From Bilabrum cf. latius (lineage: Eukaryota), in the NCBI GenBank assembly GCA_965178125.1, contig OZ237763.1, forward strand, positions 558,001-622,000: a stretch of 64,000 bases of DNA, in the 5' to 3' direction. Positions 1 through 64,000 of the stretch are shown in pieces (the first letter of the stretch is position 1; every line of letters begins with the position of its first letter). A program made the translations under genes and the position numbers. The notes below the pieces were generated by a model. It worked only from the letters and a program-made list of their open reading frames with translations. It was not told the DNA's origin and searched no databases.

Positions 1-2
1 AG

Positions 3-1097
3 GTGCCCAGGGCGCAGAGCGCTGCGTCAATCGGGACGAGCGGGCGTGCTGGCGACAGCAGGGGCCAGGGGTTCGGAGGTAGCGGAGCCCTGACCGGCAG
101 CGCGGGGCGGCTGCCACTCCTGGACGCATCTGCAGGAAGGGTCGCGTTTGGAAGTGGCGACCAGGCCGGTGCCATTGCCCGGGCTATGCGGGATGGGTCG
201 GGGGCGGGATCCGGTGCTGGCGCGTTTGCGGAGGATCGGGAGAACGAGCTGGGCGGCAGGCTACCTGATCCGGACCTTGGACCTGGGGTTCCAACTCCGG
301 CGGAGAGGCCCCCGCCGTCTCCCAACAGCAGTGCCGGGCGAGGGAAGCCCCGGGGCGGCAGCAAGGTGATCGGGTGGGAGGGGGTCGGGCACGGGACCGG
401 TGCGCTTGAGGCAGCGGGTGAGGGCAGGCCGCTGCACTCCCAGCCCAGCAACCACTCCTCTGTGCTCAAGGGCATCGAGCAGCAGCTGCAGCACCAAGAG
501 AGGGAGAAGGAGAGGGGGGGCGAGAGCAAGACGTCGCTTGGCAGTGGTTCCAGCCGCCCCGCGTCTGGACTCTCTCTTCCTCCTGGCACGAGGCCGAGGA
601 CTAGCTCGGGAGTGCATAGGCAAGGCCATGGGCAGGGGCAGGGGTACGGGGGCTCCTCAGGGGGCGACGGCTGGGGAACGGGCACTGCCATTGGCGCGCT
701 TGAAAACCAGTTGGGGATACGTGAAGGGGGCAGGCAGCAGCCCAGCATGGCGAGTGGGGCTAGCAGCGGTAGCAGAAGGCTCCACGGATCCTTGGGCAGC
801 CGCGATGATGGGGGTGAGGGCATGGTGATCGCGGGTGGCAGGCAGCCGTCCCCTTCGCCCATGTCGAGTGCGAGAGAGCTGCGGAACCGAGAGATCGCCG
901 CGGCGCGCGCGGCGAGAGCTCGGCTGGAGGCACGGGCGAGAGGATCAGGGAACAACCCAGGGAACAGGCGGGTGCAGCATCCTGGAATGCACCAAAGGTC
1001 CGTTGGGTCTCTCGGGAGCGCCAGCGGCAGCAGGGGCGGTGGTGGGGCCTTGCACGGGCTCGCCGATCTGAGCAGCTCCAGTGGGTTCCGCGGGTGA
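3..1097 (+). CDS. 3' end of a hypothetical protein with G/S/R-rich low complexity; 5' part lies outside the window
   Basis: Open frame from the window edge. Composition matches the low-complexity tails of other genes here. Ends TGA TGA (1095-1100), followed by non-coding-looking sequence. Confidence 0.7.
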   Translation: MPRAQSAASIGTSGRAGDSRGQGFGGSGALTGSAGRLPLLDASAGRVAFGSGDQAGAIARAMRDGSGAGSGAGAFAEDRENELGGRLPDPDLGPGVPTPAERPPPSPNSSAGRGKPRGGSKVIGWEGVGHGTGALEAAGEGRPLHSQPSNHSSVLKGIEQQLQHQEREKERGGESKTSLGSGSSRPASGLSLPPGTRPRTSSGVHRQGHGQGQGYGGSSGGDGWGTGTAIGALENQLGIREGGRQQPSMASGASSGSRRLHGSLGSRDDGGEGMVIAGGRQPSPSPMSSARELRNREIAAARAARARLEARARGSGNNPGNRRVQHPGMHQRSVGSLGSASGSRGGGGALHGLADLSSSSGFRG

Positions 1098-1414
1098 TGA
1101 CGAGTGTCACGCACATTGACCTGCGTAACGTGGGGCTATGCGGTCGTGCGTGCGGTCTGCTTGGGTGCTGCTTGGGTGCTGCTTGGGCGGCTGTGCTATC
1201 CAGGTTGAACCGAAAACAGTGTTGTTTATGTGTGCTCAATGCGCCCGGTGTTCCGGTTTTGCAGCGCGAAATTCGATCGCAACCACTCTCTCGGGCCCAT
1301 AGGCAGCTTGGACTGTCCATGCATCGAGCATTCGCTCGAAGTGGTGCAAGGCCACGGGCTGGGCTTGGCAGGGCTTGTCCAAGCCAGGCCCGTGAACCGA
1401 GAACCAAGCTCCGA

Positions 1415-2299
1415 TCACGACTCCATGGGAGCGCTGGCCCCTCCAGTTGCTGCCGCTGCTGCTGCTGCCACAGCGTGCGCCTCTGCCAGCTCGCGCGCCG
1501 CCTCTGGGCCCTCCTTGAGGCCGGATGCCTTTGCCATTGCGACCAGGTCGGCATGTTCCAGGGAGAGGCTCGGCGCCGAGCCGGTTGCAGCGCTGCTGCT
1601 CGAAGTTGTGGATTCGGCTTGAAATCCAGTTCCTGCTGGCCCCGACGGGCCCCACTCGCCCCCCTTCATGCGAAGGAAGTTCGCCACGATGCGGTGGCCG
1701 TGCTCCGTAGCGACAGATTCGGGGTGAAACTGAACCCCTTCCATCACGTACTTTTTGTGGCGGACCCCCTGGATAATACCCCTGTCCGTTCGCGCAGTTA
1801 TGACCAAGCTATCTGACGGAAAAGTGCCCAGGGTCCCAGCTAAGGAATGGTAGCGAATGGCACGCATGCCCTGCGGTACCTCTGCGAACAAACCACGGCC
1901 ATCGTGTGTCATGACTGACTACTTTCCGTGCTTAATCTCCCCTGCAAATTCCACTTTGCCCCCGTATACCTCATACATGGATTGGCAGCCCAGGCAAACG
2001 CCCAAAATAGGAATCTTGCCGGCAAACGCGAGGATCGCCTCCTTCGACACTCCGGCTTCATCTGGAGTTCCTGGTCCAGGTGAAATCACGAGTCGGACAG
2101 GATTTAGTGCAAGCAGCTCGGGGATGGTAACTTTATCATTTCGAAAGACCTTGATGGAGGCCCCGCACTCCTAAAGGTACTGCACGAGATTGAAGGTGAA
2201 GCTATCATAGTTGTCAATCACTGCAGTGATACCTTCGCCCGCCCCAGCCACAACTTCAGGTATATGCACCGGAATATCTGCGTGAGATGGAGCAGCCAT
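1415..2299 (-). CDS. trpG: Anthranilate synthase component II / class I glutamine amidotransferase (TrpG/PabA-like), 294 aa, 2 internal TAG
   Basis: ATG at 2299. Motifs IDNYDSFTFNLVQYL[TAG 2171]ECG, SPGPG, GVCLGCQ (catalytic Cys), HGK[TAG 1919]S, RYHSL and GVQFHPES lie in one frame. Ends at TGA 1415. Confidence 0.92.
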
Positions 2300-2577
2300 A
2301 CCTGGGGCCTTGCTGGAGTTCTGGCATCCACATCCATGCCGCGGGCCGAGGTGATTGGCTCAATCTTCATCTTCACATCCTGGAAGATTGGAACCATTCC
2401 ACCAGTAGACACTGCTGTGCGAATGCACTGCCAGTGTACAGTAACGGAACCGTGCCATCGATTTCGTGTATGCTTATGTGAGGCATCGAATCGCGAATAG
2501 AGCACGGACTAGTAGCGATTACTGCCGCCTGCGAGCATCAGAGCCATCAGCCTTTTCCCAGCCACCTGATTCTCCAA

Positions 2578-2955: not shown

Positions 2956-3391
2956 TCCCGCAAAGGTACGCTGGCGCTCGGGTCGCAAGTCCAATCGAGG
3001 CCTGTGACCTTGCAAAACAATACTTCATGGTGAGCGCACTTAGTGCCGCGCACGCCAGGGATACCCTTGTGCATCATTTCACATTATAACATTAAATCCT
3101 CAATAAACTTGGAAGAAGCAAACCGCCGGTCTTGCGTCAAGCCGAAACAACGGGGAGCCAATCAATATTAGCCAGAGCCTTCTACCTGGTGGCAACTCGA
3201 CAGCTGACGACAACCCCACGCAACATATTGATACAATCACTAAGATATCTCCTACATTGCGCAACGAACGTGGCCAAATGACGTTCGAGCGGTTGAGAAT
3301 TACTGCGCTAGCTCCGATCGTTAATCGTGAGGCATTAAGCTGTTCTTGCGCCGCCGCGATCCTCGTCGCCTCACACAACGAATCGATCGCC

Positions 3392-4927
3392 ATGGCCGCA
3401 GTACCCGGATTCGCCTCCTCTGACGCCCCCGCCGCTGATTCTGGTGATATTGTGGACGAGGAAACCGCACGGGAAGTGTTCGCGCGGTACAGCAAGGGTG
3501 GAACCACCATCGAGAGGTCAGATGTTCGTGATTTGGCCTTCAGCCTGGGGGATGCCCTCAGCCCCGACGAAGTCGACAAGGTGTTTGCCGAGCTTGACGC
3601 GGATGGTGAGCTGTATCTTATTGAGCAGTACGTCCGTCCCATGAGAATGAAGCACGCGTTGTGGGTTTTTTTTTATGCCTGCTACCCATTTGTCTCTTTT
3701 CAACTTGAGGATCTACTGTCTATCGCGCACTACTCGGTGCGTATCTATGCTTTGTTCCACATTCTACACTAGCCACACTATGCAGGGAACGGGCACATTG
3801 AGTTCGGGGAGTTCTACTCATGGCTCTCGAACCCAGATCGGGAACGCTCCGGCAACGTCACGCGGATGCTGCGCGCCCAGCTCATGGCAAGCACCACTGC
3901 TCGCATGCTGAGGAAGATCATCAGCAACGCCTCGGGCCGCAAAGTCAAGCCGGAGGAGGGCAAGACCGCCATCGACACGCACTACGCCGTCGGCGAGGTG
4001 GGCGACGATCCGGCCTTCTCGATCGAGGTCTCTGCGGGGCCCACGCGGGAAGACGCACCTGTTCCGGACGATGCCAAGCTGGCAATGGCGATCACGCTGG
4101 AGTTCCAGGACGAGGGGGCGGCCGGGACCATGCAGGGGTACCTGGAGAGTGTCTGCGAATTCGCGAACGAGATGGCTGCGGATGACGACGACGCCCCCAA
4201 GCTCAGCTGCGAGACCAAGGAGATCGACGGGAAGCCAAGCGTGGTCTTTATCATGGCCTTTCAGGGCGGCGAGATGGGCGAGATGGCCGAGGCGGCCCAG
4301 GCCATGCTGATCGACGGGCCCAAGGAGATCCTCGAAGACGGCGGTGACTTCAGCTTCCCCGAGTTCCTGCAGGACATCTCCTTCAAGATCGCAGCGAGCA
4401 TGTCTCCCTCAGATGTCATCGCGGCGGACGGCGCCGCTGTGCTGTCTGACTTCGCTGTCGATGTGCGCCTGCAGGGTGCGCTGGACGTGCAGGGTCTGCT
4501 GCTGCTGAACGCCATCCTGAAGAACGCCGCCGACGAGAACTTCATGATGGAGGACGAGTACAAGAGCGCGGCCAAGGCTTGCAAGGTGGCCAGCTCTGTC
4601 TCGGAGCTGACCCAGGTGGTCAAGTTCCGCTCGCTGGAGGCTCTGATTGGCGCATTCTCGAAGGGAGCTGCCGAGATGATGGGTCAGGTGCCGATGAAGG
4701 CCGTGGCCCTGGGTCCCATCGCCGAGATCGTGCACGGCATGCATTAGGACGAGGACACCCCTGAGTCCATCACTGACTCGTACAAGGGGCTGCGGGAGGA
4801 GTGCAGCGGCATCAAGCGGCTGCAGGTGTGGGGCGCCGGCATGTACGGACAGGTAGACTTCAAGGGCATGTCCACGGACTTCCTGCCCACTCCGGAGGAG
4901 GCCAAGGCAATCGAAGAGGCGGATTGA
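3392..4927 (+). CDS. EF-hand calcium-binding protein, copy A (exons 3392-3605 and 3786-4927; 1 internal TAG at 4745)
   Basis: Splicing the GTGAG...TGCAG intron (3606-3785) restores a canonical EF loop, DADGNGHIEFGEF. The frame continues past TAG 4745 and stays colinear with copy B to TGA 4925. Confidence 0.88.
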
Positions 4928-5563
4928 GTTTGATGGGTTGCTTGGTATTGCTCGCGCCCTACGATTTTTTCGTCCGTCTCCCTGCTTTGCGGTGGTGGCC
5001 GAGGGGCGGCATCACGATGTGTCACATGCACTTTGGACAAGAATAGGTTCATAATGTATTTTTCCGGGATCTAGTATTTTTTGTAAAAAAGTCGTATCAT
5101 TACGTGTAATCATCATCATCACCACAGAGATCTCGCACCGAACCCTCGCCCGAGGCTCAATCTCTTTGGCACTTGTCAAGGCTCCCGAGTTCACACAAGA
5201 TGATCCAGCAACACCTACACCCTGCCATGGTGTGGCTGTGGTGCAGCTGGAGCTCTTGGATCCTCGGGCTCGAACTCTTGAGGAGGTGCTTCACAGGGTC
5301 AGCAGCTGCGACTGCTCCTCCCTGGATTCCACTCTGCGCGTTGAGTGCGACCGGCATTACTCCTTCAGCTTCGGCCTGCACAGCTACTGCTTCAAGTGCT
5401 GCGGCATCTGCCACTTCACCTGCAGCCGCTTCTGTGACGTCAACTCAAAAAATTTACGAATTGTAACGAATCGTTCTGGGTAAGGAGCAAAACCAGAAAT
5501 CTCGAGCCTGCGAACACCGTCGCGGGCGATCTTCGCACGACGCTGCCAGATAGATCGATCGCC

Positions 5564-7120
5564 ATGGCCGCAGTACCCGGATTCGCCTCCTCTGACGCCC
5601 CCGCCGCTGCTTCTGGTGACATTGTGGACGAGGAAACCGCACGGGAAGTGTTCGCGCGGTACAGCAAGGGTGGAACCACCATCGAGAGGTCAGATGTTCG
5701 TGATTTGGCCTTCAGCCTGGGGGATGCCCTCAGCCCCGACGAAGTCGACAAGGTGTTTGCCGAGCTTGACGCGGATGGTGAGCAATGTTTAATATTTAAG
5801 GGGGTGCTCCTGCTGATTGAGAACAAGGCTGCGACGTTTGTCGAAGACTGAGTTCGCCAAGGTGTCGCTCTGCTACCCCCGTTCATGTTATTATTCTGTT
5901 TATCGCATTGATATGACTACTGTAGGAACGCTAGGCACATCTTTTGCCAAAATTAGTATCCTTTCGGTCGCGCAGGGAATGGGCACATTGAGTTCGGGGA
6001 GTTCTACTCATGGCTCTCAAACCCAGATCGGGAACGCTCCGGCAACGTCACGCGGATGCTGCGCGCCCAGCTCATGGCAAGCACCACTGCTCGCATGCTG
6101 AGGAAGATCATCAGCAACGCCTCGGGCCGCAAAGTCAAGCCGGAGGAGGGCAAGACCGCCATCGACACGCACTACGCCGTCGGCGAGGTGGGCGACGATC
6201 CGGCCTTCTCGATCGAGGTCTCTGCGGGGCCCACGCGGGAAGACGCACCTGTTCCGGACGATGCCAAGCTGGCAATGGCGATCACGCTGGAGTTCCAGGA
6301 CGAGGGGGCGGCGGGGACCATGCAGGGGTACCTCGAAGCCTTTAACATGGTTCTCATGAGCGATGTCGCAGATGATGATGAAGATGTGCCCAAGATTACC
6401 TGTGAGACCAAGGAGATCGACGGGAAGCCAAGCGTTATTATAACGGCGGCATTCCGGGGCGGCGAGATGGGCGAGATGGCCGAGGCGGCCCAGGCCATGC
6501 TGATCGACGGGCCCAAGGAGATCCTCGAAGACGGCGGTGACTTCAGCTTCCCCGAGTTCCTGCAGGATATCTCCTTCAAGATCGCAGCGAGCATGTCTCC
6601 CTCAGATGTCATCGCGGCGGACGGCGCCGCTGTGCTGTCTGACTTCGCTGTCGATGTGCGCCTGCAGGGGGGGCTGGACGTGCAGGGTCTGCTGCTGCTG
6701 AACGCCATCCTGAAGAACGCCGCCGACGAGAACTTCATGATGGAGGACGAGTACAAGAGCGCGGCCAAGGCTTGCAAGGTGGCCAGCTCTGTCTCGGAGC
6801 TGACCCAGGTGGTCAAGTTCCGCTCGCTGGAGGCTCTGATTGGCGCATTCTCGAAGGGAGCTGCCGAGATGATGGGTCAGGTGCCGATGAAGGCCGTGGC
6901 CCTGGGTCCCATCGCCAAGGCCGTACATGAGCTGCATTCTGACAGCGCCGCCCCTCAATCCTTTAAGGATTCGTACAAGGGGCTGCGGGAGGAGTGCAGC
7001 GGCATCAAGCGGCTGCAGGTGTGGGGCGCCGGCATGTACGGACAGGTGGACTTCAAGGGCATGTCCACGGACTTCCTGCCCACTCCGGAGGAGGCCAAGG
7101 CAATCGAAGAGGCGGATTGA
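5564..7120 (+). CDS. EF-hand calcium-binding protein, copy B (exons 5564-5777 and 5976-7120)
   Basis: Near-identical tandem paralogue of copy A, with an intron (5778-5975, GTGAG...CGCAG) at the same position. Ends at TGA 7118. Confidence 0.9.
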
Positions 7121-7481
7121 GTTTGATGGGTTGCTTGGATTGCTCGCGCCCTACAGTTTCGTCCACCGCGTCGTCTTAGTTCCGGTTCGGTTATGCTTGA
7201 CCCTGCGATGCTTAATCAGATTTCATTTCTGCGATTTCAGGATCCACTGACACTACCGAGTGAGAACCATGACAAATATACACAAGGGTACTTCTGCAAC
7301 AATCGAATCCGTTCATCACTTGTGTCCTGCGCTGTCTTCTGTGTTTGTCTTTGTCTCCCTGCGGCAGGATGTGTGTTGTAGGCCGGCCATCTGATGCCGA
7401 TCGAATATGACGATACGACTTTGAGTTTCAGATTCAGTATGTGCTTTGCCTCTGCCTGGAATCGACCGCAGCTTGGGGAGC

Positions 7482-10400
7482 ATGGACGATCCGGACCTGG
7501 CTGGCATGAACGACGCGCCGGTGCAGATGGCGTCTCCACTGGAGGCTCTGTTCGCTCGCTCCCTGCGCCCACAGGAGAGCAAACGAATATTTGAGACGCT
7601 TCTTCATTCAATGAAGCCCATTGATGAGTCTTCTATGCTGTATCTGGCTGCGGATAGCGGTGATGCGGTATTCCTGGCGCTTGTTGAAGCAGCTGCGGCC
7701 GCTGACCTATCCACGGACGCTCCGAGTGCCGATAAGGCCGCCGCACAGCGTTCAAGGCACCCTGTAGCCGTGAAGGTGGTGTTCAATCATCTGCTACCCA
7801 GCTCCAAAGAGCGTGCGGCCGCCTCCCGCCGGGAGTTCGAAGTGACCGCGGGTTTGCCATTCCACCGAAATCTGGTGCGCGTACTGTGCGAGGGCGCAGC
7901 ACCGCTGCCACCGTGGATGCTCCGTTGCCTTCCTAGGCCCGACTTGGTGTGCATCAAGTTGCCGGACGATGACGGGCAGGGGGTCGGGGTCGCAGGGGCA
8001 GGGCCGGCTGGGGACGGCCTCGAAGTACCAGGCCGAGTCGGGGCCGCCTTGCCGCAGCTCCAGCCACGCGAGGCGTACTTTCTGTGCACAGAGAATCTGA
8101 GCACACCTCTCAGATCGAAGCTGGCGAGCATGGAAGCAGGCCAGGGAGACGATCGGGTGCCGCTGCTGCTGCCACTGCCGCTGCTCATGGCATGGTGCAG
8201 CGACATCGCCGAGGGGATGCTGCACCTGGAGAGGCATGGGGTGGTTCTTACTGATCTATAGCTAGACAGCCTCATGTGGGATGCAAAAGGAGGGGTCGAG
8301 GGCGAGGGCGCAGGCGTGGGTCGCGTGGTCATCGCTGAGCTCGGGTCCTGCTGCCCCTCAGTGCAGGCGCCTTCCGCCGGAGATGCCCAAGCGACAGCCT
8401 CCGGGGCAATTGCGCCTGCAGCAGCAGCAGCTTAGGGTTCATCGCATGCAAGCGCATCTGGAGGGGCCGCCTTGAGCGCCGATAATCATGGCCGCAGGGA
8501 GTGGGGCGAAGGCGCCTTGTCGCACTGCTGTCCTGAGGTGCTGGACGAACTGGCGCAACGCAAGGCGGCCGGAAGCAGCGGAGGGGATACCACTACTATT
8601 CCGTACGGCAAACAACCGTCGTGGCAGCTGGGGCTGCAGCTGTACGGACTTGCCACCGGGGGGTTCCACCCGTACGGGGATAGTGGCGCGTCCCCAGGGC
8701 AGCTGCCGGACGGCACAGCTGTGCCGCCGGGACATTTGCAGAGGGTATTGGAGTCTTATGAGGGCCCTTTGAATCGTGAGGACAGGCTGGACGAGAGACC
8801 GTCCTGGTTTGTCAAGCTGGTGCTTGGGCTGCTGCAGGCGAATCCTGCGAAGCGCTTGTCAGTGAGCGAGGCCGCGGCGGTGCTGAGACGCAGAAGGGCT
8901 GGGCACGTGATGCAAGTGCGTGACAAACGACTGGTCGAAGCGACAGCTGCCGCAGCGGGAGCACAAAATCCGGGGCAGCACCCTCGGCAGCAGCGAGATG
9001 TCACGCTTTACCACGGCACGTCAACGAAGATCGAACGGGAGCTGCTCGAGAAGCTGGGAGCGATTCCGTTCAGCGCCGCAGGACTCGAGATGCTGACTTC
9101 GTCGGAAATGGCCGCCTCTGGTGCCAGCGAAGCGGGCGAGAGGGGCTACCACAGACGAAGAGTCAAAAGTGGTATTAGGTTTTCAGTACACCGCGCGGAG
9201 CAGCTTCTCCGGCACGAATCGGGGTCAACTGCATGGAATGCTGTACTCAGCGTCATGCAGCAGGCGGGAGTGGCAGGAGTGCCGTCCTCTCGCTCCGGGC
9301 CAAGAATGGCCTTTGGCTGGGCTGGTCCGCGCATCAGCGATAGGTCTGGGCTCAAATTCACCGCCGGAGCTTCCGTTTACCTGGCAGCGGTGCATGAGTA
9401 CCTCTGCGCTGAGCTGGAGGAGCTGTGTGGCAACGAGATGAACGGATTGCCATCCGAGTATGCAGAGAAGGCGGAGGGCGAAGGCGAGGGTGCATGTCCT
9501 CTGCCAGTGCCGCCCTCCATAGCCTTGAGCGCGATCAAGGAGGATGCGGAGCTGCTAAAAACTTTTTCTCCGCTCGGAGGCCTTGATGCAGGATTTCAGC
9601 TGATGGCACCGTGCCACCGTCGGCTAGAGCTTATACCAGAGCAGGAACTGACCGGTATCAGTAGTAAAGCCAGCGAATCCAGCGGTGGCAAAGGTGGTCA
9701 AAAAGGTCATGCGCTTACGCCAGTTCAGCCCTCATCGATTCTAGCTGAAGAATCGGCCACAGACGTGTGGCAGCGGCGGCGGGATCGCCTGGGATTATCC
9801 GACAGTGATACCGAAGCAGGCGGCCGCGACGAGTGGGATAAAGAGGATTAGGCTGCCTCGGGGTTATCTTCTCCTGCGTCTTCTAAGGACGCAATCGGCA
9901 ACGTGTACCCTTGTAGCGTGCTGCAGATGGCTACCGTAGCCCTAGCGCGGTCTGTAGATCGCCATGCAGAGGCCTCCCGGTCTGGCATTGAGGTACACCT
10001 GGATGAAATGGCCGGGGCAGTCTTGGGCAGGGGCAGGAGCAGGAGTAGACCGATGAGACTTGTGGGTGCAACTCGCGTGACGCGCGGCCCCTTGTCATAT
10101 GAGCTGAGGCCGCAGGACGGGCACGATCGACCCCCCGTCGACGCGCTCGAAAGGCAAGTCGAGGCTTCACTCAACGGGCTGCTTGCTGCGGTATTACGGA
10201 ATGCGGTGACGTGTGTCGAGTACAGTAGATGTCTGCGCTTACGTTGGCAGGACGTGGCCCACGCTGCCGTGCTGCACGCCGCCTCCGTTGTCAATCTGAG
10301 GGAGGACAGGGGGGCGTGGGACGCGAGACGAGACCTGGTGCTGTTCCGAAAAGCGGCAACGAACGCCAGAAGGCGCAGCAACGGCCGCCCTTCTGCTGCC

Positions 10401-31274: not shown

Positions 31275-31387
31275 CAACTGATTGAGGTATTCGGGATGGG
31301 ATTCGTCAGTTGAAGCGCATAGGCACTTCTATCTACGGCATACCCGCACTGCACACGTAGGTACAGCATGCGGTTTCACCCGTAATG

Positions 31388-37900: not shown

Positions 37901-38083
37901 TGAAGGTTGCGGTCTTGTCCTCGACGAACGAGTAGGCTACAGATTGCTGGCAGTGGCAATATGTGGGTGTTATTTAATTTCGAAGCCCACGTGTAATGTA
38001 GATGCGCCAGATCCATGTATGCAGGACTTTAAATAGCTTTGCAAATTGGATTTCTGGCGAAACTTAGTCTGACAAAAAAAGAT

Positions 38084-47455: not shown

Positions 47456-47839
47456 GCGGCGCTACGGAAATAACTGATAGCTTAAGCTAACTTTTCTGTT
47501 GGAGTAAGCTCCTTAGACAGCCACGACGTGCCCTGTGGTCGAGAGGAGCGTCTCAAGCCGCAAGGCACGGAAATGGAATTGGGTTTCACTGAGACTGGGT
47601 GGCAGGTGTGGTACAAATCAAGTCACAACGGCTTCAGAATGTATGAAATACTGAGGTCCAAGTGGTATCCGGTCACCTTGAAGATTTCAATGGCAGCAGC
47701 CGTTCAATCTTTGTCGCGGCAGTCGACCCGTTGCGACCGCCGCTGCCTTGTTTGAGCTTGGTCGCAAATTGGCCCAGGGTCGCATGTACGCCCATAAAGA
47801 ATCGAGACAATCAAGAAAATGAAGCAGCATGCGTAGTCA

Positions 47840-48820: not shown

Positions 48821-49131
48821 CGTTGCAAGTGAGCACAACTGCGCGGCGAAAGGTTCGTCCGTGCAACGAGCTTGTGTGACGACGATAGTACAGGATCGTG
48901 GGCACTGCAGTGCATAATGTAGAGCGAGTAGCAGAAGCGAGCATGCACAAGTCTTGATGTTACTAACTCTAAGCATGGCTGATTGCCGCCAACTAATCTA
49001 CAAGCGCCCCCCCACTGGCACCAGCATATCCCAACCCCCCTCCCCCCGCCACGTCCCCACGGTTGGACCCCACCACCGCCACCAAGCCACATCAATGGTA
49101 CATCAAACCTAATCAAGGTAAATCAAGGTAC

Positions 49132-52100: not shown

Positions 52101-55100
52101 CCGTCTGCTCGTCGGGTCGACCAGAGTCGCCTCTCCCCACTCCACTGATGGTGACCCGGTCGTCACCCACCCCGCCAGACGGAGAAGTTGCTCCCGTGTT
52201 GTCACCTGACCCGCTGCCTCGTCTCCTGTCTTCTTCATTGCTGTCGCTGCTCAAATTTGTTTCGTGGAACTCGGAGATGGAGAGGCCCATGTTGGCGTCA
52301 GCGGTCGGTGCCATCATGCCGCCGCCGGAGGAGTCTTCCGTGGCAGATCGTTCACCAGGCAAGCTATCGGGCAGGTTGGAGTGCAGCACAACGGCGGACG
52401 AAGGCAATGGGGCCTGCCGCATCAGCAGCACGCTCGCGATGAATCGACCTGCCTTGGTGCTGTGCAGCGCCGCGAGCCTGAGGGCGTGCTGCAGGTTCAG
52501 CGGCAGTTCGATGCTCCCAATGAGCCGCCTCGCACCCGTGGTGAAGGCGGCTAGCTTTCGCAGCTCGTCCACATGCTGCAGAGAAGGAGCAGAGGCATTG
52601 ACAAAGAAGTGCGGGTACGTAAGGACCGACCTCTGCGCCAGCCTCTTCTGCGCGATCTGTTGTGGCGTGAGGCCTTCATCGAACGGATCGCCCACCTCGA
52701 TGGAATCGGTAGACCCCATACTTCTTCGAGACGACACCATGGCACTGGACCCTGGCGTGACGACGCCCCGACCAGTCGGGGCGGGCGAGAGCTGGTCCGT
52801 CTTGAGCAGTTCAGTCTCAAGGTAGTTGTGTATTGCCACGTTGAAGCGGTTAAGGGGGTGCGATGCCGCGGAGCCGTCGGACCTCTCAGTGCTGCCGGTG
52901 CGGCCCCTATCCGGCTTCGAGGGGTGTCTCGGCAGCGCGCCCGGCTGCTAGCCGTCTCGACGGTTGCCACCAGACGAACGTCGTTGCTTCCCGTTCCCAC
53001 CCACTCCCGGCGTTGAAACTGTGCTCCGCGGAAGAACGAATGCTGCATGCGGACCGCTGTTCGACCGCGAATTCCGGCGACCGTCCGGCCCGTTGCCGCC
53101 CGCCCCGGCCGCTCTCCGCCTCTCCTGCATCTCCTTCTCATGCGCTTCCTCTCTCTCCCTGGCCCACGCCTCGTCTTTCTCAGATACCCACTCTGCCCAC
53201 CCAGACAGCTTCACGGACGTGTTGCCGTCCCATGCCACGAGGCGAGCAGACATCTCGAGCTTGGTAAGGTTCTCAGACCTGTCCGCGTGTGCCACAACCC
53301 ATGACACGCACGTCTGCAGGGCCTGCATGGCCCGAATCGGATCCAGCGTGGCACTCTGTGGCAAGTTCTCTGCCACGTAGGTGGAAACGCCGCACGCTGG
53401 CTTCTTCTTCTCTCCCGCAGAGTCCGTGGGGTTACCGCTCTGGGTCCTGGCAGCCCCACCCACCACGCTTGGGGCATTCATCGAAAATGCGAACGAAGGC
53501 TCGTCCCCTGTGATGCTCTGAAAGGTGCCTCCTCGCGACAGGCGGCTCCCGTACAGCCCGGTCCTGGTACCAGTCCCCGTCAAGGAGCCCTTCTTGTTGC
53601 TGCTCTTGAACCTGTACTTGCTATGGTGCCCCCCAACTGACCCCAGCCGGCCCGCATCGAGCCCCGAGACGGACCGCTTGGTGCCGGACTAAAAGGAGAT
53701 GTGCGTCTCCCCGTCATCATCGCCAGCAAGCGAATCCAGTTCGCCGCCCAACCACTGCGACCCCGAGTCTGCGCTCTGCAAGAACGACTGGTTGCCTCCT
53801 TGACGGCCGTCCGAGGACAGACCGGCCAGCTCGCCATAGTGTCCAGATCTAGCACCCTGGCTGCTCTGCTCCGAGGAGTGACGGGAGGCGTGATTCGGCG
53901 CTTTTGTTGACTGCGTGGGTGGCAGCGAGGGCCTGCGGCGGGACGCGGCCGGGGACGCCTTGATGGCATCGGCGCGAGCCTCGCGTAGGGCGAACTGCTC
54001 TACCGCAGCGATGAGGTCGAAGAGCCTGGTTGACTGGGGGTTGAGGGAGACCTGCCCCTGCGCGAGATTGGACGCGTCAAGAGCGTCTCTGGTGAGTAGC
54101 CTGATCTGGTCCACGACGGCATGCGCCGCCCTGAGCGCGTTACCTGCCGTGCTGTCGCTCGCAGCCTCGATATCCACGAGAGGCCGCAGCTGCTGGAGAG
54201 AGTTTGCGAGCGCCTGCGTGGGAGGCCGCAGCTGCTCTGCAAAGTACCTGACAACCCTCTTCTAGGCGTGGTTGGCGGCCCTCATCTTCTCCTTGGCTGC
54301 CCGTTCCCTCGCCCTTGACTGCACCTCCTGCATCTGTCTCTCGATGGAGCGGTTGACCAGCGTGACCGTGATCCAGGCCAGCATCACGCGAAGGATCAGC
54401 CTCTGCAAGGCAAAGAAAGCCAGGCCTAGCATGGATGCTACGCTTAGGGAAAGCCTGTGCGCGTAGGAAGACTCTGGGGGTGCAATTTCCAGCGGCTCGA
54501 TGCCGCCGTACGTGCTGATCACGCGATCGAAGAACAAGGACAGAATTGCCGCCACTTTCGCACCCCAGAGGATGAGTGAAGGTCCTGTGCACATGCAGTT
54601 GACCCCCGTGAGCATGGGTCCAAACTCCGCGTAGATCCACGGGGCCACCCTTGGCCACGGGGTGCTGCTAGAGGCGCGGCCACCGGAGCCGACCGAGTCG
54701 ATGCCTCCGCTGGACTCGATCGTAGTCGTCCCAAAGGACTTGAAGGTGGAGCCTCCCCTGGATCCCATGCTGGCGTTTCGGCTCCTGAGGCCACGGCGGG
54801 AGGAGGAGAGCTGGGGAGAGTTGGTGACGTTGGGGTCTCGTCCTCCCGAGATGCTGCCAGCTAGAGGCCTCTGCGAATCCGAGCCGAGGGACACCAAAGA
54901 AGCGTACCGCAGCTGCTACAGGCGTTGTACAACCAAACCACGCATGTCAGCAATCGTAGAGGCAGCCCATGCAGTCGCGCAATCGCAGCAGAACGCATCC
55001 GATGCGATGACCTCCGAGCTCCACTCGTGCACGCCGTAGCCCTCCTCCACGCTGCGGCGCCTGCCACCGGCCTTGCCCTTCCCACCGCCACCCGTGGAAG

Positions 55101-57255
55101 CATCACCCGAAGCCTGGCAGTGAGAGCACCTCATGCACAGGCACAAGGGGCTGTCGCAAACCCAGGCGTTGCACGAGCAGCACCCGATGCAGCACGACTG
55201 GCAGCAGGCTGTCGCGCAGACCCTGCGGCAGCAGGTCAGCCCGCCCACCGTGCAGCAGCGACGGCAGCAGCGCCGTGTCCTGACGGCCGCGCGCCACGTC
55301 GACGCCCTTTGGTAGTCCGAGCAGGCGTCCATGCAATCCGGCTCCGGGTCCAGCTGGGGCCCGTGCCGCTTGGCCGTGAGGTAGTGCATGCCGGGCTCGA
55401 AGCAGCAGCCGCACAGGCCGCACCCAGGGGCCTCGTCCTCGACATGTGGCCTGCCGTACCTTCGCCTGCGCCTGTGCGGAGGATCGCCGGCCCATGCGCC
55501 ACCACCCCTCGTTGTTCTCTCGGTGAGACAGTCTCCGCACGGCCTCCCGCGCCAGCCGTCTGGTACCGGTAGGTGCGGCTCCAGGTGCCAGGCCACTGGA
55601 CCCAGCCGTCCCACCACCTGGGAGATAGTGTCCTCCCGCACCCATGTGCGCACCTCGCTGGCCATCGTGGACTCTGACACGCGCAGCCTCACCGGGGCAG
55701 GGGCCACCGGCGGTCCCGGGGGCCGCACACCCCAGCTTGGCTGCGGCGAGCTGGCATCGGCCCCCGTCCCTGCCCCGTAAGACCCGGTGGTGCCTCCCTC
55801 CTGGAACTGCACCACGGGAACGGTGACTCTGCTCGTGCCCGCTGTTCCCTGGGTATCAGTTCTGCCTCCCTGGCTGCCTTCGTTGATGCTGGACGGGTCG
55901 TTGCTGGCAGTGGGCTTGGCATCGCCTGGCTCGCTCCCAACGGAGGAGAGCTTGGAACGGTGCCGCGGGCTAGAGCCGCTGGCTAGCAGGCCGGAACTGA
56001 CCTGCGCTGGTGGAGAGCTGTGAGGAGTAGGCTGGCCAGTCGGCAGCTCGCCTGCCCCATGATGCTGCAGCGAGGAAGCCGGTCCAGTGGCTAGGTGAGG
56101 ATGGGATACAACCGACTGCAGCTTGCCTCGTCTAGGCAAGCCCATGCCGTAAAATCTGGCAATGTCCCTGCCCCTCATACCCATGTTGGCTGCCTTGGGA
56201 ACCCGCAGAACAAAATCGATGGGTGTGAGCGACATGAACAGGGCGAATGAGGCGAAGCAGCAAATTACCGCGATCAGGTACAGCGCGATGTACGATGCGT
56301 GGTTGGGTGTGTATTCAGGATCACGGAACGACCCATCGGGCTCCACTATCGTGCTCCTGCCCTCCGGCCAGTACGAATCGAACGCCGACTGCGCGTACGG
56401 CCACACCTCGATGATCGCGAAGCCAAGAATGAGCGTAGCGGTCCGGACGAATGTGCCAGTCGCCGTCGAAAGAGAATGGATGCTGAGCTATGCATTCATC
56501 AAAACAATGGTGACTGCCGTGGACACCAGCGCGAACGCGTCCCGGTAGCGATACAGGGGCTCGCCGGAGGTCTGCAGCGCGAATGGGTACGCCCACATGC
56601 AGCCGACGATCATGAAGAGGCCTTCAAAGCCGCCAACTAAAAACTAAAATGCTGCAACGCGGTACGTTCGAGCCGCGATCGGATGCTTCGCTAGGAACGC
56701 TGCAGAGAAGAGCCCAGCTCCAATCGCTGCGTTCTGGAACAGGATTAGGCCACCTATCGCTCGGCGGGAGCTCAGCGAAGTCCACGATTCCACAAAGGAC
56801 GCTACTTCCCCCTCTCCTTCAAGTGGATATTCTACATCCCGCTGCGTGCCGTTGATATTGTGGGTGGTGAGTATGTCGTGGACTGTCCTGACGTGCGCTG
56901 GCGTCCAGCCACCAATACAGCCGACTCCTATCAAAACAAGTACCAGCGCCAATCCAATTGCAGCTGTAATATAGGAAGGGTACAGGGGGGCTGCAATGGC
57001 ATCGTCGCGTGCTGCCAAGGCCAAGAATCTCCAAGCTGCCCGAGCCGCAGATTGTGGGGCTTTAGCTACCGCCACTTGAAACGACACAGCAGCGGTCCAC
57101 AGCGCACTTCCAGTCGATGATGAATTTGTAGAATCTCCTGGCGTCCTGGATGGCCACACAAATGTATTCGGTGTGCATATCCAAGACGGACGACTCTGTC
57201 GATCGAGGCCTACCCGCTCCAGCTGCAGCTGTTTGCCGCCAGTGCTGTCTCCCAT
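49132..57255 (-). CDS. Membrane-bound hybrid histidine kinase-like protein with degenerate HisKA, HATPase and receiver domains, about 2707 aa, 9 internal TAG
   Basis: ATG 57255 and a multi-TM N-terminal half. H-box region AANHA*KRVVRYFAEQLRPP; LLTRDALDASNLAQGQVSL; LDPIRAMQAL; G2 box STGLSLSIVRMLVEAQGGKMGV; receiver C-terminus VVGLSG...GLAAVVLRPV. One frame to TGA 49132. Confidence 0.82.
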
Positions 57256-57449
57256 CAGGTCTTAAAATGAAGCTACCCGAGGCAAGCTATGTATCGAGAC
57301 TGCTGCACAGTACTTGGGCACGGCAATGTGAGCGAGTGTGGGCGGTCGCACGTGAGCGGCCTTGCGAGCTTTCAAGTTGGTCGCAAGCTCCGTGCGGAGA
57401 GTCACGGGTACAGTAGAGACCAAGTGCAACCAACTTAATTCAAATGTAA

Positions 57450-59912
57450 TTACTAAAAAACCACTGCCCCGTCTCCCATCAGCATGCTCGAATCGTTGTC
57501 CAACAACTCGACGCCGTCCAGCCCTATCGCGCCGTCGGCACTGCGATCATGGCCGGCACGACTCGGTACTGCTCGGTGCCGCCTCTACGATCGAAGAGTC
57601 CCTGCAGCTGGCGAGCCATTCATCTTGGATCCGTGGCCACCCGTCATCGGCTCGGCAGCACCCTCGTGAAAAGGCTGAATTTCGAATGATGCAGCCAGAC
57701 GCTTGGCAGCAGACTGCTGCAAAAGTCGGATGACTGATGGCTAGCCGAGCAGATCAGCCAAAGAAGCTGCGATCGCACTTGACATTGCAGTGCGAGCGGG
57801 CTCTGTCAGGACGTCATGGGACCGATGCCCCGAGCAAGCCACGTCGTCTCGCTGCTCACTCCCGCGGTGCTCGCCAGCGGGCAGTTGCTCCGATTCGCCA
57901 ACCCCGAGCCCGCCCTGGGATATCGATTCCGAGTACCGCATGGCCGTCATGGCCGCGGCACCGGCCGCAGCTCCGTAGGCCGCCGCGAACTCCTTGCTCC
58001 ACCTGCCGCTCCGCAGCGACCGGACGTCCTCCGGGCCAAGGGGTGGGAAGGAGGGGGCGAGCGGGGGCTCGCGCGCCGCCCTTCCCTAACCCTAGCCAGA
58101 CCGAATCAAACCGCTAGGATCCACTACCAGAGACACGGCCGGCCGGGTCTTGATGCCGGAGCCACCCCGCACGCTGCCTGTGTACCCCCCTTTCGGCCCC
58201 CCAGTGCCACCAGGCTCTGCCCGTGCCTGTGCCAACCCCTTGTTGCCAGCAGACCCGGACCCGGACCCGGACCCGCCTCGCTCGCTGCTGCTGCTGCCCC
58301 GCGGCGGCTCCGTCCACACGGTGTTGGCGCCCGGCATGCTCTCACCGGGGTCCCGCAGCCCCGCCGGCGCCGCGCCCAGGTTCCGCAGCACGGCCTGCAG
58401 GTCCACGCCCCTGGTGCTGACGAGTGCGGCCACCACGTCATCAAGGAGGCGGTCGTCCGCCTCGCTGGGGCTCCTGTGGGCACCCAGCGCCCTGGCAGCA
58501 GCGTCTTGTTCCCTGGAAGTACCTGACCCGGTACCTACTCGCCTGGGGTCCGTCTCCCCCGAACGGCGGGCCGAAGGTGATGCTGATGCTGATGCTGATG
58601 CTGATGATGATGCTGATGATGATGATGCTGATGATGATACTGATGATAGTGATGATGCTGGTCGACGGCCCGGCCTGTCCGCTCCCCTGCTCGCCCGGAA
58701 GTTGGCAGGTAGTGTCGGGGGCGCGGCGGCGCGAGGCTCTCCGACAACCACATGGTGCCGCGCTCCCGCGCGACCCACGGCCACCGCGGACCCCGCGCCA
58801 TGCGAGGCACCCAAGTAGCGAGGGTGGCGCGAGTTCGACGATCCATCCCCGCCACTGATGCTCGTCACACTGTTTCGCATGCCCGCCCACCCGCCACCAA
58901 AGACCCCGCTGTGCCCCCTCCCGGCACCGGGCCTCATGGACGCTGCGAGCTCCCGCCCCGAGGCGGTGACCAGAAGCGAGGGCGCCACCGGGTCTCGATC
59001 CCCGGGGGTGGCAATCGCAGCCGCAAGCGTACCCCGCCCCATCCCAGGAAGTTTCGCGTCGCTCCTCGTTAGGCCAGCTGCCAGCCGTTGGGCGTAGGCG
59101 TCCAGGGTGTCTGGCCTGGCTGACCCCAGCGTGGGGGCGGGGAGCACAGGGGCTGGGGTCCACAGGTGGGGTGGGGGTCGACGGCGGAACTGATCGAAGG
59201 GATCTGCACCGCCATACGATGCACCCTGCGTTCCAGACAGGACCGGGTCGTACCGGGACATCCCCGTGACCTTGCCATCTCCATCTCCACTGGCAGCGTG
59301 TGCTTGGTCGATGGGCTCTGCTGGTCCCCGCTCGCCGCTTGACATATCAGGGGATTGATACGCCCCATCAGACTACGGAGATTCGGAACGGGCAGGCGGG
59401 TGGGCTGAACTGGGACCCTCCCTTCCCTCGGGTGAAGAATCGCCACTGCCAGTGGCAGGCGCGTCAACGGCGGGATCGGTGCCGCCAAACTCTTTTTCTG
59501 CTTTGGAGTCAGCTTCCCTCCGCCGCTGTTTTCTTCGCAGATGGGCGCGCTGGATTGCTCGGGCGATTCGAGCACCAGCTACAGTGGCCTCGCTAGCATC
59601 TGTCCATCTCATGTCAGCCACTGTCACTACGTTGCCGCCGGTTGGCGTGCTGTGTGTAGCTGTGTCTTGCGGCCCAGACTCTTGCTCCACTCTCAAGCGG
59701 ATACTTGTAAGCATAGACGCATCGATGAGCTTGGAAGACGAGCCCAGGCGGTGGAGCATGCTTTCTTTGTCTGCCTTGAGCGATGCCTGGCTGTCATGAG
59801 GAGAGCTCCTCTCATCCTTGCGGTTTCTTGATGGAGAGGGCTCCTCCACTTCAAATTCATCGTCTTCATAGTCATCAACTGCATCATTATAGCCACCCTG
59901 AGTACTCTGCAT
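57450..59912 (-). CDS. Hypothetical low-complexity protein with an IQ-like motif, about 820 aa, 6 internal TAG; ends at TAA
   Basis: ORFs 59373, 58092 and 57741 are joined in frame by TAG. IQ-like ARAIQRAHLRRKQRR. The frame ends ...GTT TTT TAG TAA (57455-57450), followed by AT-rich sequence. Confidence 0.7.
58578..58660. repeat. Coding (gat/gctgat)n microsatellite encoding a Ser/Ala tract
   Basis: tgatgctgatgct... array; the minus strand reads SSSASSSSASASASAS. Confidence 0.8.
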
Positions 59913-60056
59913 GACGCCAACGTTTCGCAAATGAGAAAGGAAGTCCCGCGATTCGAATCTCGATCACGAACGTTCGGTATCTCGAACGTTCGTGAAGTTC
60001 CACCGAATCTGGGAAGAATTGGGAGCGGGGGGCAATCGATCACTTCTTGCTAAAAA

Positions 60057-63000
60057 ATGGCGGCCGCGTTTGTGGAGCCAGTTAAGAGCAAGCAACACAA
60101 TGTGGAAAGCATGTGGGAATCGTACCTAGACGAGACGACGTCACAACTGAGTGTTGCCAGACCCCGCGTCGAAGTGTGTCTGGAGCGGGCCGGTGTCACC
60201 GTGTCCACCACGAAGGCATCCCAGTCTCCCGACGGCCTGCTAGCGTTCGCCGGCAGGGCCCTTACGTGTGGAATGATTGGCTCGAGCAAATCTTTCTCCT
60301 TCCCAGCGGTAGCTCCTACCACGAGTGAGTTGCCGGGGCCTGGTGCGACCTGACGTGTGGGCCATCGCCCATTACCGCACTTTTTCATTGCCGCACTTTG
60401 CTGAACACAAGGCCACCCATTCGATGCTTGCCTGCAGTGCTGGCCATACTTGTTATATGTAACATAATTAAAATGCTAAATACCGCTGACAGCCCCGTGT
60501 TCTCGCGCAGTGCGGCTCCGGCCCGGCACGCTGACACTCGTCCTTGCGAACCCTGGCGGTGGCAGCAGCTCCCTTTTACGAATGATAAGTGGAAGGATCC
60601 AACCAACCGAGGGATCAGTCAAGTACAGTGGGGTGTCAACAGCTGGTTTGTCGGGCAAGGGGGTGGATGCTAGAAGGATTGGCGGATACATTGGCCAGTC
60701 TGATGTCCATGAGCCGCTCTTCACTGTACGCGAGACTTTCGAGGTGAGACCGTGTCAGACAATGAATCATTTATTCAATCCTGGCTGGGTTCCTACTGTG
60801 CTGCCTGTCGTCCTTCCACTCTGGGACGCGAATCCATTGCACGCGTGAAGTGCGGTAATGCCGATCTGCCAGCAGTGCCTACATCGCATCAGTAGTGACG
60901 CCAACGAGTGACCTTCCCTTCGACCGCAACGCAGTACGCCGCCAACTCTGCATACGGTGCAGCAACCGGTGCGACGGGCGCCCCGCCCGCGGAGTGCCTG
61001 CTAGCCACCAAGAAAGCCCAGGCCATGGTAGACCTGCTCGGGCTCGGCCCCTGTGCCGACACTGTGGTGGGCAGCGCCACTGTGCGCGGCATCAGCGGGG
61101 GATAGAAGAGGCGCACCTCCATCGGAGAGATCCTGCTGACGGAGCCGAGGGTGCTCTGCGGAGACGAGATCACCGCGGGCCTGGACGCTGCTGTGGCAGA
61201 AGAGGTGGTGCTACGGATGCAGCAGTACGCCCGCCGCACGGATGCCACCGTTGTTCTCTCTCTCAAGCAGGCCACGCCCGAGACGTACAATCTCTTCGAC
61301 GATGTCGTGCTTCTCAGCGATGGGCACGTCATCTACCACGGGCCCAGGGAGGAGCTCGAGGACAACCTCGCGAGGAGGGGCTTCCCCGCACCAGAGGAGG
61401 GCGACTTCGCCGACTGGCTGGCCGCACTCGTCACAGACCCGGCATTGGCGCTACCTCCCACCCACACGGGCGAGGTGCCAACGGGCGAGCAGCTGTCCAA
61501 GCAGTGGTACGCCAGCGACGCGATGCGGGCTTCTGCCCAGCGCAAGGCACCCGGGCGGGCCCCTGCCTGCATGCCGCTCGAGCGGCCGGGGGAGCAGAAA
61601 CACGAGCACGACGACCTCAAGGCGTTCATGGACAGTTCCGAGTACCTGAGGATGCGCTTTGGGGCGGGAGGGCAGTCCGTGTCGAGCTCCCTGTCTCGGT
61701 TCGGGGCGGCGCTCAGCCGCACGTTCCGGCTCGTCTCTCGCAACCCAGAGCTGACCATCGTGCGATTCTGCCAGAGCCTCTTCCTCGGGCTCATCTTCGG
61801 TGGATCCTTCTTTCAGCCTGATGTTGACGACTTCGCACCGCGGATTGGGGTGAGTTTCACGTCTTGCTCGCGCTGCTCCGATTCCCATGACGTGGCGCAA
61901 TCTCGAATGGTACCGCTGCGATTGCTCGCGCACACGTCGCATGCCAGCGCAAGGCACCTGGATTCACTCCCGTCTTTCGACCCTCACCGCCCCGCAGATT
62001 TCTCTTTTTATTGCCATCAGCGTGTCGTTCGGGTCATTCGTGGTGAGGCGTAGACACAGACGGAGAGAGCCCAGCTATGCGTCCTGCTGGCTGTCGCCGA
62101 TCGCCGGCAGCACCGACGTGAATCCGAGTCGTCGAATCGAAAGCCATTTTTGTACGTTCATTGCATCCATCGGATCAAAAAGCACCGCAGGAGGTAGAAG
62201 CTATCATGGCAGGCAGGGCCACGTCATACAAGCTTGCAAGGGCCGGCTTGATGGATGAGTTGAGCTACGTTGGGAGCATATGGCTGGTCAACATTCCCAT
62301 CACGGCGATGACCACACTGGTGTTGTCGCTCTGCGTGTACTTCATGGTCGGCTTCGCGCCCGATGCGGACAGGTTTCTCTTCTTCTGGCTGATCACCGCC
62401 TTCCTCGAATTCGCCATGCAGGGCGTCTTTCGGTCCATCACCTTCGCGACGCCGACCCAGCAGCTGGGCCAGACCATCTCCAGCGCGGTCACAGGCGTGT
62501 TTCTCATGATGGCAGGCTTTCTGGTGACCCGCACCAATATCCGCGACTTCATGCGCTTCATGTTCTACCTGTCTCCGTTCAGCTGGGCCATCCGATCATT
62601 GGCCATCAATGAGTTCTTCGACGAGCGGTACGATGACCCGGTGCAGATCCAGGGCGGACCCATGACACCCCCAGGGAACAACACGCCCGCGGGTACGATG
62701 CCCTCTCCTCCATCTAAGCGCGATGCTTTCCTGGACGTGTTCGACTTCTAGCGCGACCCCAAGGCAGAGTGGCAGTGGAGCGCGATGGCTGTGCTGACTG
62801 CCTACTGGATCCTCTTCGCAGTCGTGCTGTCCACGCTGGCCGTGACCCACTGCAAGTACGACATCGCTCCTGGCACGCAACGTATCCACGACGAGGAGAC
62901 CCGCAAGGAGATGTCTCGCCAGAGGACCATGTCAAGGAGGAGCCCATCGCCCATGCCCATGGAGGGAGGCAGTGCGGCTGCAGCTGCATCCGCGGCTGAC

Positions 63001-64000
63001 ATCCAAGTGCGATCCCGCACCCCGACGCAGGACGTGTCCAAGACGAGCAGCATGGCCAAAGCGGCGTCCAGGTTCGAGCCGGCGGTGCTTTCGTTCTCCA
63101 ACATTACATACTCGGTCAAGGTGCCGGCGGACGGCGCCGCTGCTGCTGGTGCCAAGGAGGCCGCGAGCAGGATGCGGTCGTTCGGAGAGAAACGCAAGGC
63201 CTCGGGGTACCGCGGCGAGGATAGGACCAGCGTGAATAGTGTCGTGAGTTCCGGCCAGGAGGGCGAGGACGTCGATCTGACCCTGCTCCGGGGCATTTCG
63301 GGCGTGGCTCGACCCAGGCGCATGATCTGCCTCATGGGTGCCTCGGGCGCTGGCAAGACAACTCTCATGGACGTGCTGGCGGGCCGCAAGACCTAGGGCA
63401 AGGAGGGTGGCGATGTGTTCGTGAACGGCAAGTCTCTGACCAAGTTGCAGCGCTCAGGGCTCATCGCCTACTGCGAGCAGACGGACGACCACACGGCCAC
63501 GGACACGGTGCGAGAGGCAGTTGACTTCTGCGCACTGCTGCGGCTGGACGCTGACATGGCGCAAGACTACGACGAGCGCGAAGAGTTCGTGGATGAGATT
63601 CTGCGGCTGCTCGAGCTGGACTCGGTGAAGGGGCGGCCCGTGTCAACGCTGGCGCAGGGCGAGCTGAAGCGCCTGACCATCGGCTGCGAGCTGGCGGCCA
63701 ACCCAAGTCTGCTCTTCCTGGACGAGCCCACCACGGGGCTGGACGCCAGGTCGGCGGCCCAGGTCATGCGCGTGCTGCGGAACGTGTCAGACACGGGCCG
63801 CACCGTGGTGTGCACGATTCATCAGCCGAGCTACGACGTGTTCGCGGCCTTCGACGACCTGCTGCTGCTGGCTGAGGGCGGGCGGCAGGTGTACTCTGGG
63901 CCGATCGGTGAGCACTGCAGCGACTTGGTGCGCCACTTGCAGGAGGCCTCGCCCGTGGTGGGAAAGCTGCCCGCCCGCCTGAACCCCGCCACCTGGATGC
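60057..64000 (+). CDS. Full-size ABCG/PDR-type ABC transporter (NBD1-TMD1-NBD2...), runs off the window; 4 introns, 3 internal TAG
   Basis: Introns 60325-60510, 60744-60934, 61850-61997 and 62043-62190 (all GTGAG...GCAG) keep the frame. [30 protein letters not shown] (61103); [43 protein letters not shown] (62749); [22 protein letters not shown] (63394); [22 protein letters not shown]. Confidence 0.93.

Follow-up and report, generated by a model that had tools for sequence, protein, structure and literature searches.

UAG as a sense codon, most likely for glutamine, in a GC-rich nuclear locus

The window analysed here is a stretch of 64,000 nucleotides (positions 558,001 to 622,000 of contig OZ237763.1, forward strand, assembly GCA_965178125.1, listed under Bilabrum cf. 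latius), and all coordinates below are positions within it. Its G+C content is 62% and stays between 59 and 65% all along. The genes of the window carry numerous TAG codons in frame, and the question addressed here is how these are read. Under table 11, where TAG is a stop, the longest frames are fragments of at most about 600 codons. When TAG is taken as a sense codon, frames of 3870, 3142, 2709, 1541, 1058, 837 and 783 codons are obtained in the window. We find that UAG is a sense codon in these genes and that it very probably stands for glutamine, as in NCBI table 15, the UAG Gln code. The following features were annotated; x marks the residue encoded by TAG, NBD a nucleotide-binding domain and TMD a transmembrane domain.

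1415-2359 (-): TrpG/PabA-type glutamine amidotransferase, TAG at 2171 (YLxE) and 1919 (HGKxS), ending in TGA
3107-4927 (+): EF-hand-like gene, tandem copy 1, TAG once in coding sequence (MHxDEDT) and once in a probable intron
5438-7120 (+): EF-hand-like gene, tandem copy 2, near-identical to copy 1
7425-12050 (+): open frame of 1541 codons with a weak histone-fold C-terminus, 8 TAG, ending ...TKFCNS and TGA
13301-24913 (-): giant open frame of 3870 codons, 27 TAG (25 after the first Met), ending in TGA
26354-29530 (-): open frame of 1058 codons, no known family, 7 TAG, ending in TGA
35549-37900 (+): iGluR-like/solute-binding protein, 783 codons, 3 TAG (35921 in TAxREK), ending in TGA TGA
38084-47512 (-): K+ channel, CNBD/EAG-HCN type, 3142 codons including an extended low-complexity tail, 21 TAG, ending in TGA
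47840-49102 (-): ECH1, dienoyl-CoA isomerase-like, TAG at 47999 in SPVAVxGTK, ending ...AKL and TGA TGA
49132-57261 (-): open frame of 2709 codons, no Pfam family found, 9 TAG, ending in TGA
57450-59963 (-): open frame of 837 codons, 6 TAG, the sole frame ending in TAA
60252-60743 (+): ABCG/PDR transporter exon with a putative start and the NBD1 Walker A region, 58% identical over 158 residues to a homologue on a metagenome contig (L081, see below)
60744-60934 (+): ABCG intron of 191 nt, GT..AG, missing from a spliced contig of run X6 (see below); the exon frames join in phase
60935-61855 (+): ABCG exon with the NBD1 signature GISGGxKRR, TAG at 61103, CAG at 61772
62191-64000 (+): ABCG exon with the end of TMD1 and NBD2, TAG at 62749 and 63394, running off the window

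Domains were called with Pfam at its curated cut-offs, and structure matches were obtained by sequence searches against PDB. GATase, ECH_1, Ion_trans, SBP_bac_3 and, at 60.3-64 kb, ABC_tran/ABC2_membrane passed these cut-offs, which bears out the identities that an earlier note on this DNA had given to TrpG, ECH1, the K+ channel and the ABC transporter. TrpG (GATase, E 3.9e-49) has its best PDB matches among the glutaminase subunits of aminodeoxychorismate and anthranilate synthases (1.6e-60). ECH1 (ECH_1, E 9e-38) matches human and rat ECH1 in PDB (3e-75), with residue Q at the TAG site; its named best matches are the Corallochytrium-type 'Clim', Manchomonas and Ectocarpus. The channel frame (Ion_trans, E 6.8e-21) matches hERG, HCN and GORK structures (1e-39 to 1e-29). 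Its best non-self protein match is 34% identical, and the named best matches are Andalucia, Pythium and Myrmecia. For the ABCG gene, PDB matches were Cdr1, Pdr5 and ABCG2, and the named best matches were from land plants, green algae, Phytophthora, fungi and Euglena. Together, the names found for the channel, ABCG and ECH1 are spread widely among eukaryotes. In the Atlas, one TAG-free piece gave ECH matches at family level only, and another piece gave none.

Other labels of the earlier note fared less well. For the protein at 35549-37900, called an ionotropic glutamate receptor, the solute-binding part stood (SBP_bac_3, E 5e-11), and the receptor-type domain did not, as Lig_chan-Glu_bd stayed below its cut-off (E 0.00086). 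The name TMEM94 for 13301-24913 could not be confirmed: apart from a sub-threshold match to E1-E2_ATPase (E 0.0028), no Pfam family was found at E<=0.01 and no homologue came near the full length. No Pfam family was found in the supposed histidine kinase at 49132-57261 either, also when cut-out pieces were searched. In the frame at 7425-12050, described as a kinase-histone fusion, both domains remained under the curated cut-offs (Histone, E 0.003; Pkinase, E 0.014).

The four frames at 13301-24913, 26354-29530, 49132-57261 and 57450-59963 are rich in Ser, Gly, Arg and Ala and of low complexity, with no curated Pfam match and no homologue of near their length. Apart from a weak match to EF-hand, the tandem pair resembles no known family; in both copies the EF-hand exon is probably followed by an intron. 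Copy 2 has diverged around the one coding TAG of copy 1 (MHxDEDT) and shows Ser at that place. The genes are tightly packed, with only 30-330 bp between several neighbours. The segment at 29600-35500, about 6 kb, is without any frame of coding-like codon usage, and the short frames in it have no Pfam match.

To describe the use of TAG, codons were counted in 11 frames with coding-like codon usage (15,693 codons). In frame 0 these contain 446 CAG, 114 CAA, 88 TAG, 1 TAA and 10 TGA. All 10 TGA and the one TAA are terminal codons; internally, neither TGA nor TAA occurs, which is partly so by construction, because the frames were delimited at TAA and TGA. Another set of 10 frames, overlapping with this one and comprising about 15,600 codons, was counted in its two off-frames; there, TAG occurs 133 and 114 times, TAA 31 and 38 times and TGA 243 and 283 times. 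Thus, TAG is only mildly depleted in frame compared to the off-frames, whereas TGA and TAA are absent internally. At the off-frame rate of about 1.9% per codon, the probability that 3870 codons are free of TAA and TGA by chance is negligible. The in-frame frequency of TAG, 88 as against 446 CAG and 114 CAA, is about that expected of a minor synonymous codon. Three further TAGs in the ABCG exons (61103, 62749 and 63394) bring the total for the window to about 91, in agreement with the roughly 90 counted by hand in the earlier note. Several of these fall upstream of the first Met or within introns: two in 13301-24913, one in the channel frame, one upstream in the ECH1 frame and one in each EF-hand paralogue. 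After TAGs before the first Met are dropped, our counts for the giant frame, the channel and the frames at 49132-57261 and 7425-12050 (27, 21, 9 and 8) match the 25, 20, 9 and 8 given earlier.

In TrpG, ECH1, the K+ channel and ABCG, Pfam domains and PDB alignments continue through TAG positions. The six positions that had been singled out as lying inside motifs (61103 in the ABC signature, 2171 and 1919 in TrpG, 47999 in ECH1, 35921 in the iGluR-like protein and 46349 in RDRxVP of the channel) are all TAG codons in those motifs.

With regard to termination, TGA ends 10 of the 11 frames and TAA one. In ECH1 the protein ends ...AKL before TGA TGA, and an SKL or AKL end is present in 53 of 150 homologues. 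This match identifies TGA as a true stop. The frame ending ...TKFCNS and the giant frame at 13301-24913 end at TGA as well, as had been stated before. For TAA, about 22 internal codons would be expected if the CAA:CAG ratio is applied to the 88 TAGs, and none was found; this evidence comes from 11 genes only, whose frames had been cut at TAA to begin with, and the protein ending in TAA has no homologues. The window fits a reassignment that affected UAG and left UAA as a stop. The principal stop codon is UGA; UAA is probably a rare one.

Several observations at the ends of genes could be taken to mean that UAG is mainly read as glutamine and has kept a context-dependent role as a stop, for example near mRNA 3′ ends, which would make the code ambiguous. 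The frame at 57450-59963 (-) ends ...TAG TAA, with the TAG at 57453-57455 directly before the TAA. Either the protein ends in a glutamine encoded by this TAG, or the TAG is itself a stop with TAA in reserve behind it. TAG is found within the last 31 codons in four of the 11 frames, where about two would be expected at the mean density, and this may point to some residual stop function. Moreover, two of the 11 genes end in TGA TGA (37898-37903; 47837-47842), and in three more a second in-frame TGA follows within three codons (after 4927, 7120 and 49132). The doubled TGA may serve as a back-up against leaky termination, and such leakiness would be in keeping with an ambiguous code. On the other hand, the excess of TAG near the 3′ ends is small and not significant. 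The window holds no homology-supported C-terminus at TAG, ECH1 with its AKL and TGA being the clear opposite case, and its frames are free of internal TGA and TAA, which the known ambiguous codes do contain. We therefore give a small probability to UAG still acting as a stop in some contexts.

To determine the meaning of the codon, we looked for close homologues. A protein search with the ABCG exon at 62191-63999 gave P0036 (Logan, 68% identical) and P0058 (JGI, 74% identical). The latter led to L081, a JGI metagenome contig of 6898 bp with 57% G+C. It carries a homologous ABCG gene with a matching exon pattern and four in-frame TAGs of its own, which places the variant code also outside the window's own sequence. 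The two genes show 65% identity over 1046 aligned codons. TAG 61103 of the window is aligned with CAG in L081 (local identity 0.93), CAG 61772 with TAG (0.64), TAG 62749 with CAG (0.71) and TAG 63394 with TAG 3936 of L081 (0.86). Hence, at the well-aligned sites where the two genes differ, TAG faces CAG in three of three cases. The two codons are one transition apart, and their exchange between homologues is the pattern expected of synonymous codons. Using the substitution frequencies of this alignment itself, the posterior for Gln was 0.97 with all five sites and 0.996 with the three well-aligned ones; Arg reached at most 0.03, and Ser and Leu were about 0. In addition, P0036 shares 70% identity with each of the two genes; it covers two of the L081 TAG sites, the shared site 63394 (GRKTQGRESGD) and L081 3714, and carries Gln at either one. 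A second metagenome locus, L082 (38% identity over 103 residues), was left out of the comparison.

Distant homologues gave a mixed picture. In the ABC signature GISGGxKRR, the column of the TAG contains Q 87, E 21, A 2 and T 1 among 111 sequences, and S, L, R and G are each absent. In ECH1, Q is the modal residue with 42 of 143 non-gap entries (150 representatives), followed by A 19, R 19, V 16 and T 10. Among 33 channel homologues, VPYxIGF shows R 15, E 6, L 3 and Q 2, with Q in two of the three closest, and RDRxVP shows R 5, K 5, G 4, N 3, Q 3 and E 3, with Q in hERG. Seven well-occupied columns including the signature gave Gln 0.42-0.89, depending on how strongly the counts were down-weighted.

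It has to be considered whether UAG is sense for another residue, such as Ser, Glu, Arg, Leu or a small one (Thr, Ala, Gly), and a number of sites count against glutamine. In 80 bacterial homologues of TrpG, the position in YLxE is occupied by G 57, A 11, C 4 and Q 4, and that in HGKxS by T 60, A 7, V 5, M 3, L 3 and I 2, with no Q. The distant homologues of NBD2 have G 57, S 27, T 14, E 11 and Q 6 in GRKTxG. A likelihood from hmmbuild emissions over 10 distant sites without the signature ranked S 0.35, E 0.20, A 0.19, T 0.08, K 0.06 and Q 0.06, so that Gln was sixth, with Leu, Tyr and Trp at or below 0.003. Two L081 TAGs lie opposite Arg codons of the window: TAG 3552 opposite CGA (local identity 0.36) and TAG 3714 opposite AGG (0.14), both in a poorly aligned linker. 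Finally, L081 may represent an orthologue from a related species or a distant paralogue; the TAG/CAG comparison holds either way. As to the residue, the distant variable columns alone are indecisive. The close pairs, the two Gln residues of P0036 and the complete lack of S, L, R and G in the signature column stand against all of this, and it is very unlikely that UAG encodes anything other than glutamine.

The presence of the TAGs in independent sequencing data was examined with contigs (not reads) of four runs, X1, X5, X6 and X7, from three studies, which were aligned to 44001-64000; contigs drop rare variants and may conceal minority ones. The region 44001-59963 contains 28 TAG sites, of which 28 are covered by contigs of X1, 27 by X5, 11 by X6 and 4 by X7, and no difference was observed at any of them. 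Differences were seen elsewhere, in paralogous ABC contigs at 61081-61443 and 63328-63412 and at one base, 58162. One contig of X6 skips 191 nt, with a joint 60741->60933 (cut +2). The sequence at this place, GAG|GTGAG...GCAG|TAC, corresponds to a canonical intron at 60744-60934. A contig of about the size of ECH1 (about 1050 nt) was present in X6 (47761-48818) and in X7 (47773-48815). Its depth was 27x and 11x, respectively, compared to about 4 and 1-4 for its neighbours, i.e. about 3-6 times higher. The spliced contig and the deep ECH1-sized contigs suggest that X6 and X7 are probably RNA. Two points weaken this assignment: the spliced joint is seen in one contig of depth 2 with a side of 27 letters, and no run is recorded as RNA, so that the label is a guess plus inference. 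Since the TAGs are unchanged in these probable transcripts, with 11 of them kept in X6, messengers devoid of the TAGs were not seen, and editing of UAG is unlikely. One could suppose that the TAGs are not translated as such: they might stem from errors of sequencing or assembly, belong to pseudogenes or micro-introns, or be edited to CAG in the mRNA by a U-to-C change. This can hardly be upheld, even granting that contigs can hide minority variants and that the runs lack an RNA record. The TAGs are identical in contigs of four runs from three studies, decaying pseudogenes would also have gained TGA and TAA (none in about 15,700 codons), the TAGs inside motifs leave no room for introns, the run holding the spliced contig retains 11 of them, and the L081 homologue shares a TAG codon with the window (63394 and L081 3936).

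The region 44000-49200 was found in runs X1-X7 under three coded organism labels (A, B and C) from three studies. Over about 13 kb these runs share the sequence without differences, and small shares occur in runs named 'protist metagenome' and 'algae metagenome'. The carrier of this DNA may be a symbiont, a parasite or a culture companion, or the organism labels may be synonyms. At 61081-61443, 63328-63412 and 63796-63908, contigs of all four aligned runs match the window at about 90% identity and then diverge, which indicates that the organism has several close ABCG paralogues. L081 was considered as the paralogue of the runs with at least 90% identity and was rejected, as it agrees at only 12 of the 22 variant bases and contains not one of the four loose-end strings. 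The idea that the paralogue within this genome retains TAG in its signature codon was also given up, since differences near the end of an alignment go unreported.

Taken together, our data show that UAG is a sense codon equivalent to CAG and that UGA terminates translation. In this the central claim of the earlier note is upheld: the length of the frames, conserved domains that continue past TAG, the recovery of the TAGs from independent runs, one of them probably RNA, and the L081 homologue with its own TAGs speak for a sense codon, and the three TAG/CAG pairs, P0036, the ABC signature (87/111) and ECH1 (42/143) for glutamine as the most likely residue. We consider it very likely that the window belongs to the nuclear genome of a eukaryote with high G+C and closely packed genes, where UAG has come to mean glutamine, UGA is the main stop codon and UAA probably a rare one. 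By analogy to other lineages in which UAG or both UAR codons mean glutamine, a tRNA-Gln with the anticodon CUA, derived from tRNA-Gln CUG, would read UAG. Such an anticodon does not read UAA by standard pairing. Likewise by analogy, eRF1 would have lost efficient recognition of UAG and would still recognise UAA and UGA. One tRNA gene was found in the 64-kb window, a tRNA-Phe(GAA) at 31831-31905 (+) within the segment 29600-35500, and no tRNA was found on the 6898-bp L081 contig. The gene for eRF1 does not lie in the window.

Glutamine for UAG with UAA as a stop is an already known kind of code, and the present one is a new case if the organism is unreported. According to PMC5304391 and PMC11687900, UAG and UAA are nearly always reassigned together, and UAG alone is a sense codon in only a handful of nuclear lineages. 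In the literature we did not find a GC-rich non-ciliate with UAG alone as glutamine besides Iotanema; this search was made without the name of the organism and is therefore not proof of novelty. With somewhat less than even probability, the window may come from an unreported lineage, neither ciliate nor fornicate, GC-rich, gene-dense and probably aerobic, in which UAG as glutamine is decoupled from UAA, and the code may be common to the divergent environmental relative represented by L081; it would then be an established reassignment at the level of a clade and not the property of a single odd strain. Another, independent case in a GC-rich genome with UGA as its main stop would help to show how eRF1 can be tuned to drop UAG and yet keep UAA. 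It would also inform the questions of which tRNA takes over and whether GC pressure, under which TAA is rare and CAG abundant, favours the UAG-only route. In practical terms, annotation with the standard code shatters the genes of this assembly, and the variant table is needed for predicting genes, scoring completeness and searching proteomics data from this organism. Pieces cut at TAG by standard-code gene calling are already present in public protein sets, namely P0001 (351 aa of the 3142-codon channel frame) and P0035 (497 aa, ABCG).

Codes in which all three stop codons are ambiguous are found in Condylostoma, karyorelict ciliates and Blastocrithidia. A further example with all three stops in frame is Amoebophrya sp. 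ex K. veneficum, as described in PMC12005148. The common feature is UAG in frame in essential genes, for which suppressor tRNAs have been proposed. However, the ambiguous codes also have UGA and UAA in frame, whereas the window has neither internally in 15,693 codons.

A reassignment of UAG alone with UAA kept as a stop is shared with Scotinosphaera, where UAG is reported to mean Ser (PMC11687900), and with the rhizarian exLh, where it means Leu, as it does in some ciliates (PMC11687900 and PMC5304391). The difference lies in the residue. For the window, the close pairs leave a posterior of about 0 for Ser and Leu, and neither residue appears among the 111 sequences at the ABC signature; the distant variable columns alone would give Ser 0.35.

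According to PMC11687900, many ciliates, hexamitin diplomonads, Ulvophyceae, Streblomastix and Amoeboaphelidium read both UAR codons as glutamine. With these the window has in common that UAG is read as Gln, presumably by a suppressor tRNA-Gln together with an altered eRF1. They also use UAA for Gln, in contrast to the window, where no internal TAA is found in 15,693 codons with 114 CAA and 88 TAG, and where one gene ends in TAA.

For Protocruzia tuzeti and two phyllopharyngean ciliate lineages, PMC11687900 gives UAG as Gln with UAA not reassigned. Here, too, UAG is decoupled from UAA and glutamine is the new meaning. The range of G+C given there for ciliates is 28-53.6% (PMC11687900), while the window has 62% G+C, exons of 9-11 kb and a GT..AG intron of 191 nt. 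With these features and the peroxisomal-type end of its ECH1, the carrier does not resemble the organisms so far known to use this code. No ciliate is among the named best matches of the channel, ABCG and ECH1, which is weak evidence against a ciliate.

Among the closest known systems is the fornicate Iotanema spirale, in which UAG is Gln, UAA and UGA are stops and UAA is the primary one (PMC5304391). Its codon table is identical to the one proposed here, with UAG alone turned into Gln and UAA kept as a stop. The usage differs, since UAA is the primary stop in Iotanema and TGA ends 10 of the 11 frames in the window. Furthermore, Iotanema is an anaerobic flagellate, whereas the window encodes an ECH1 with a C-terminal AKL, a signal of the peroxisomal type. 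This predicted protein end suggests an aerobic organism.

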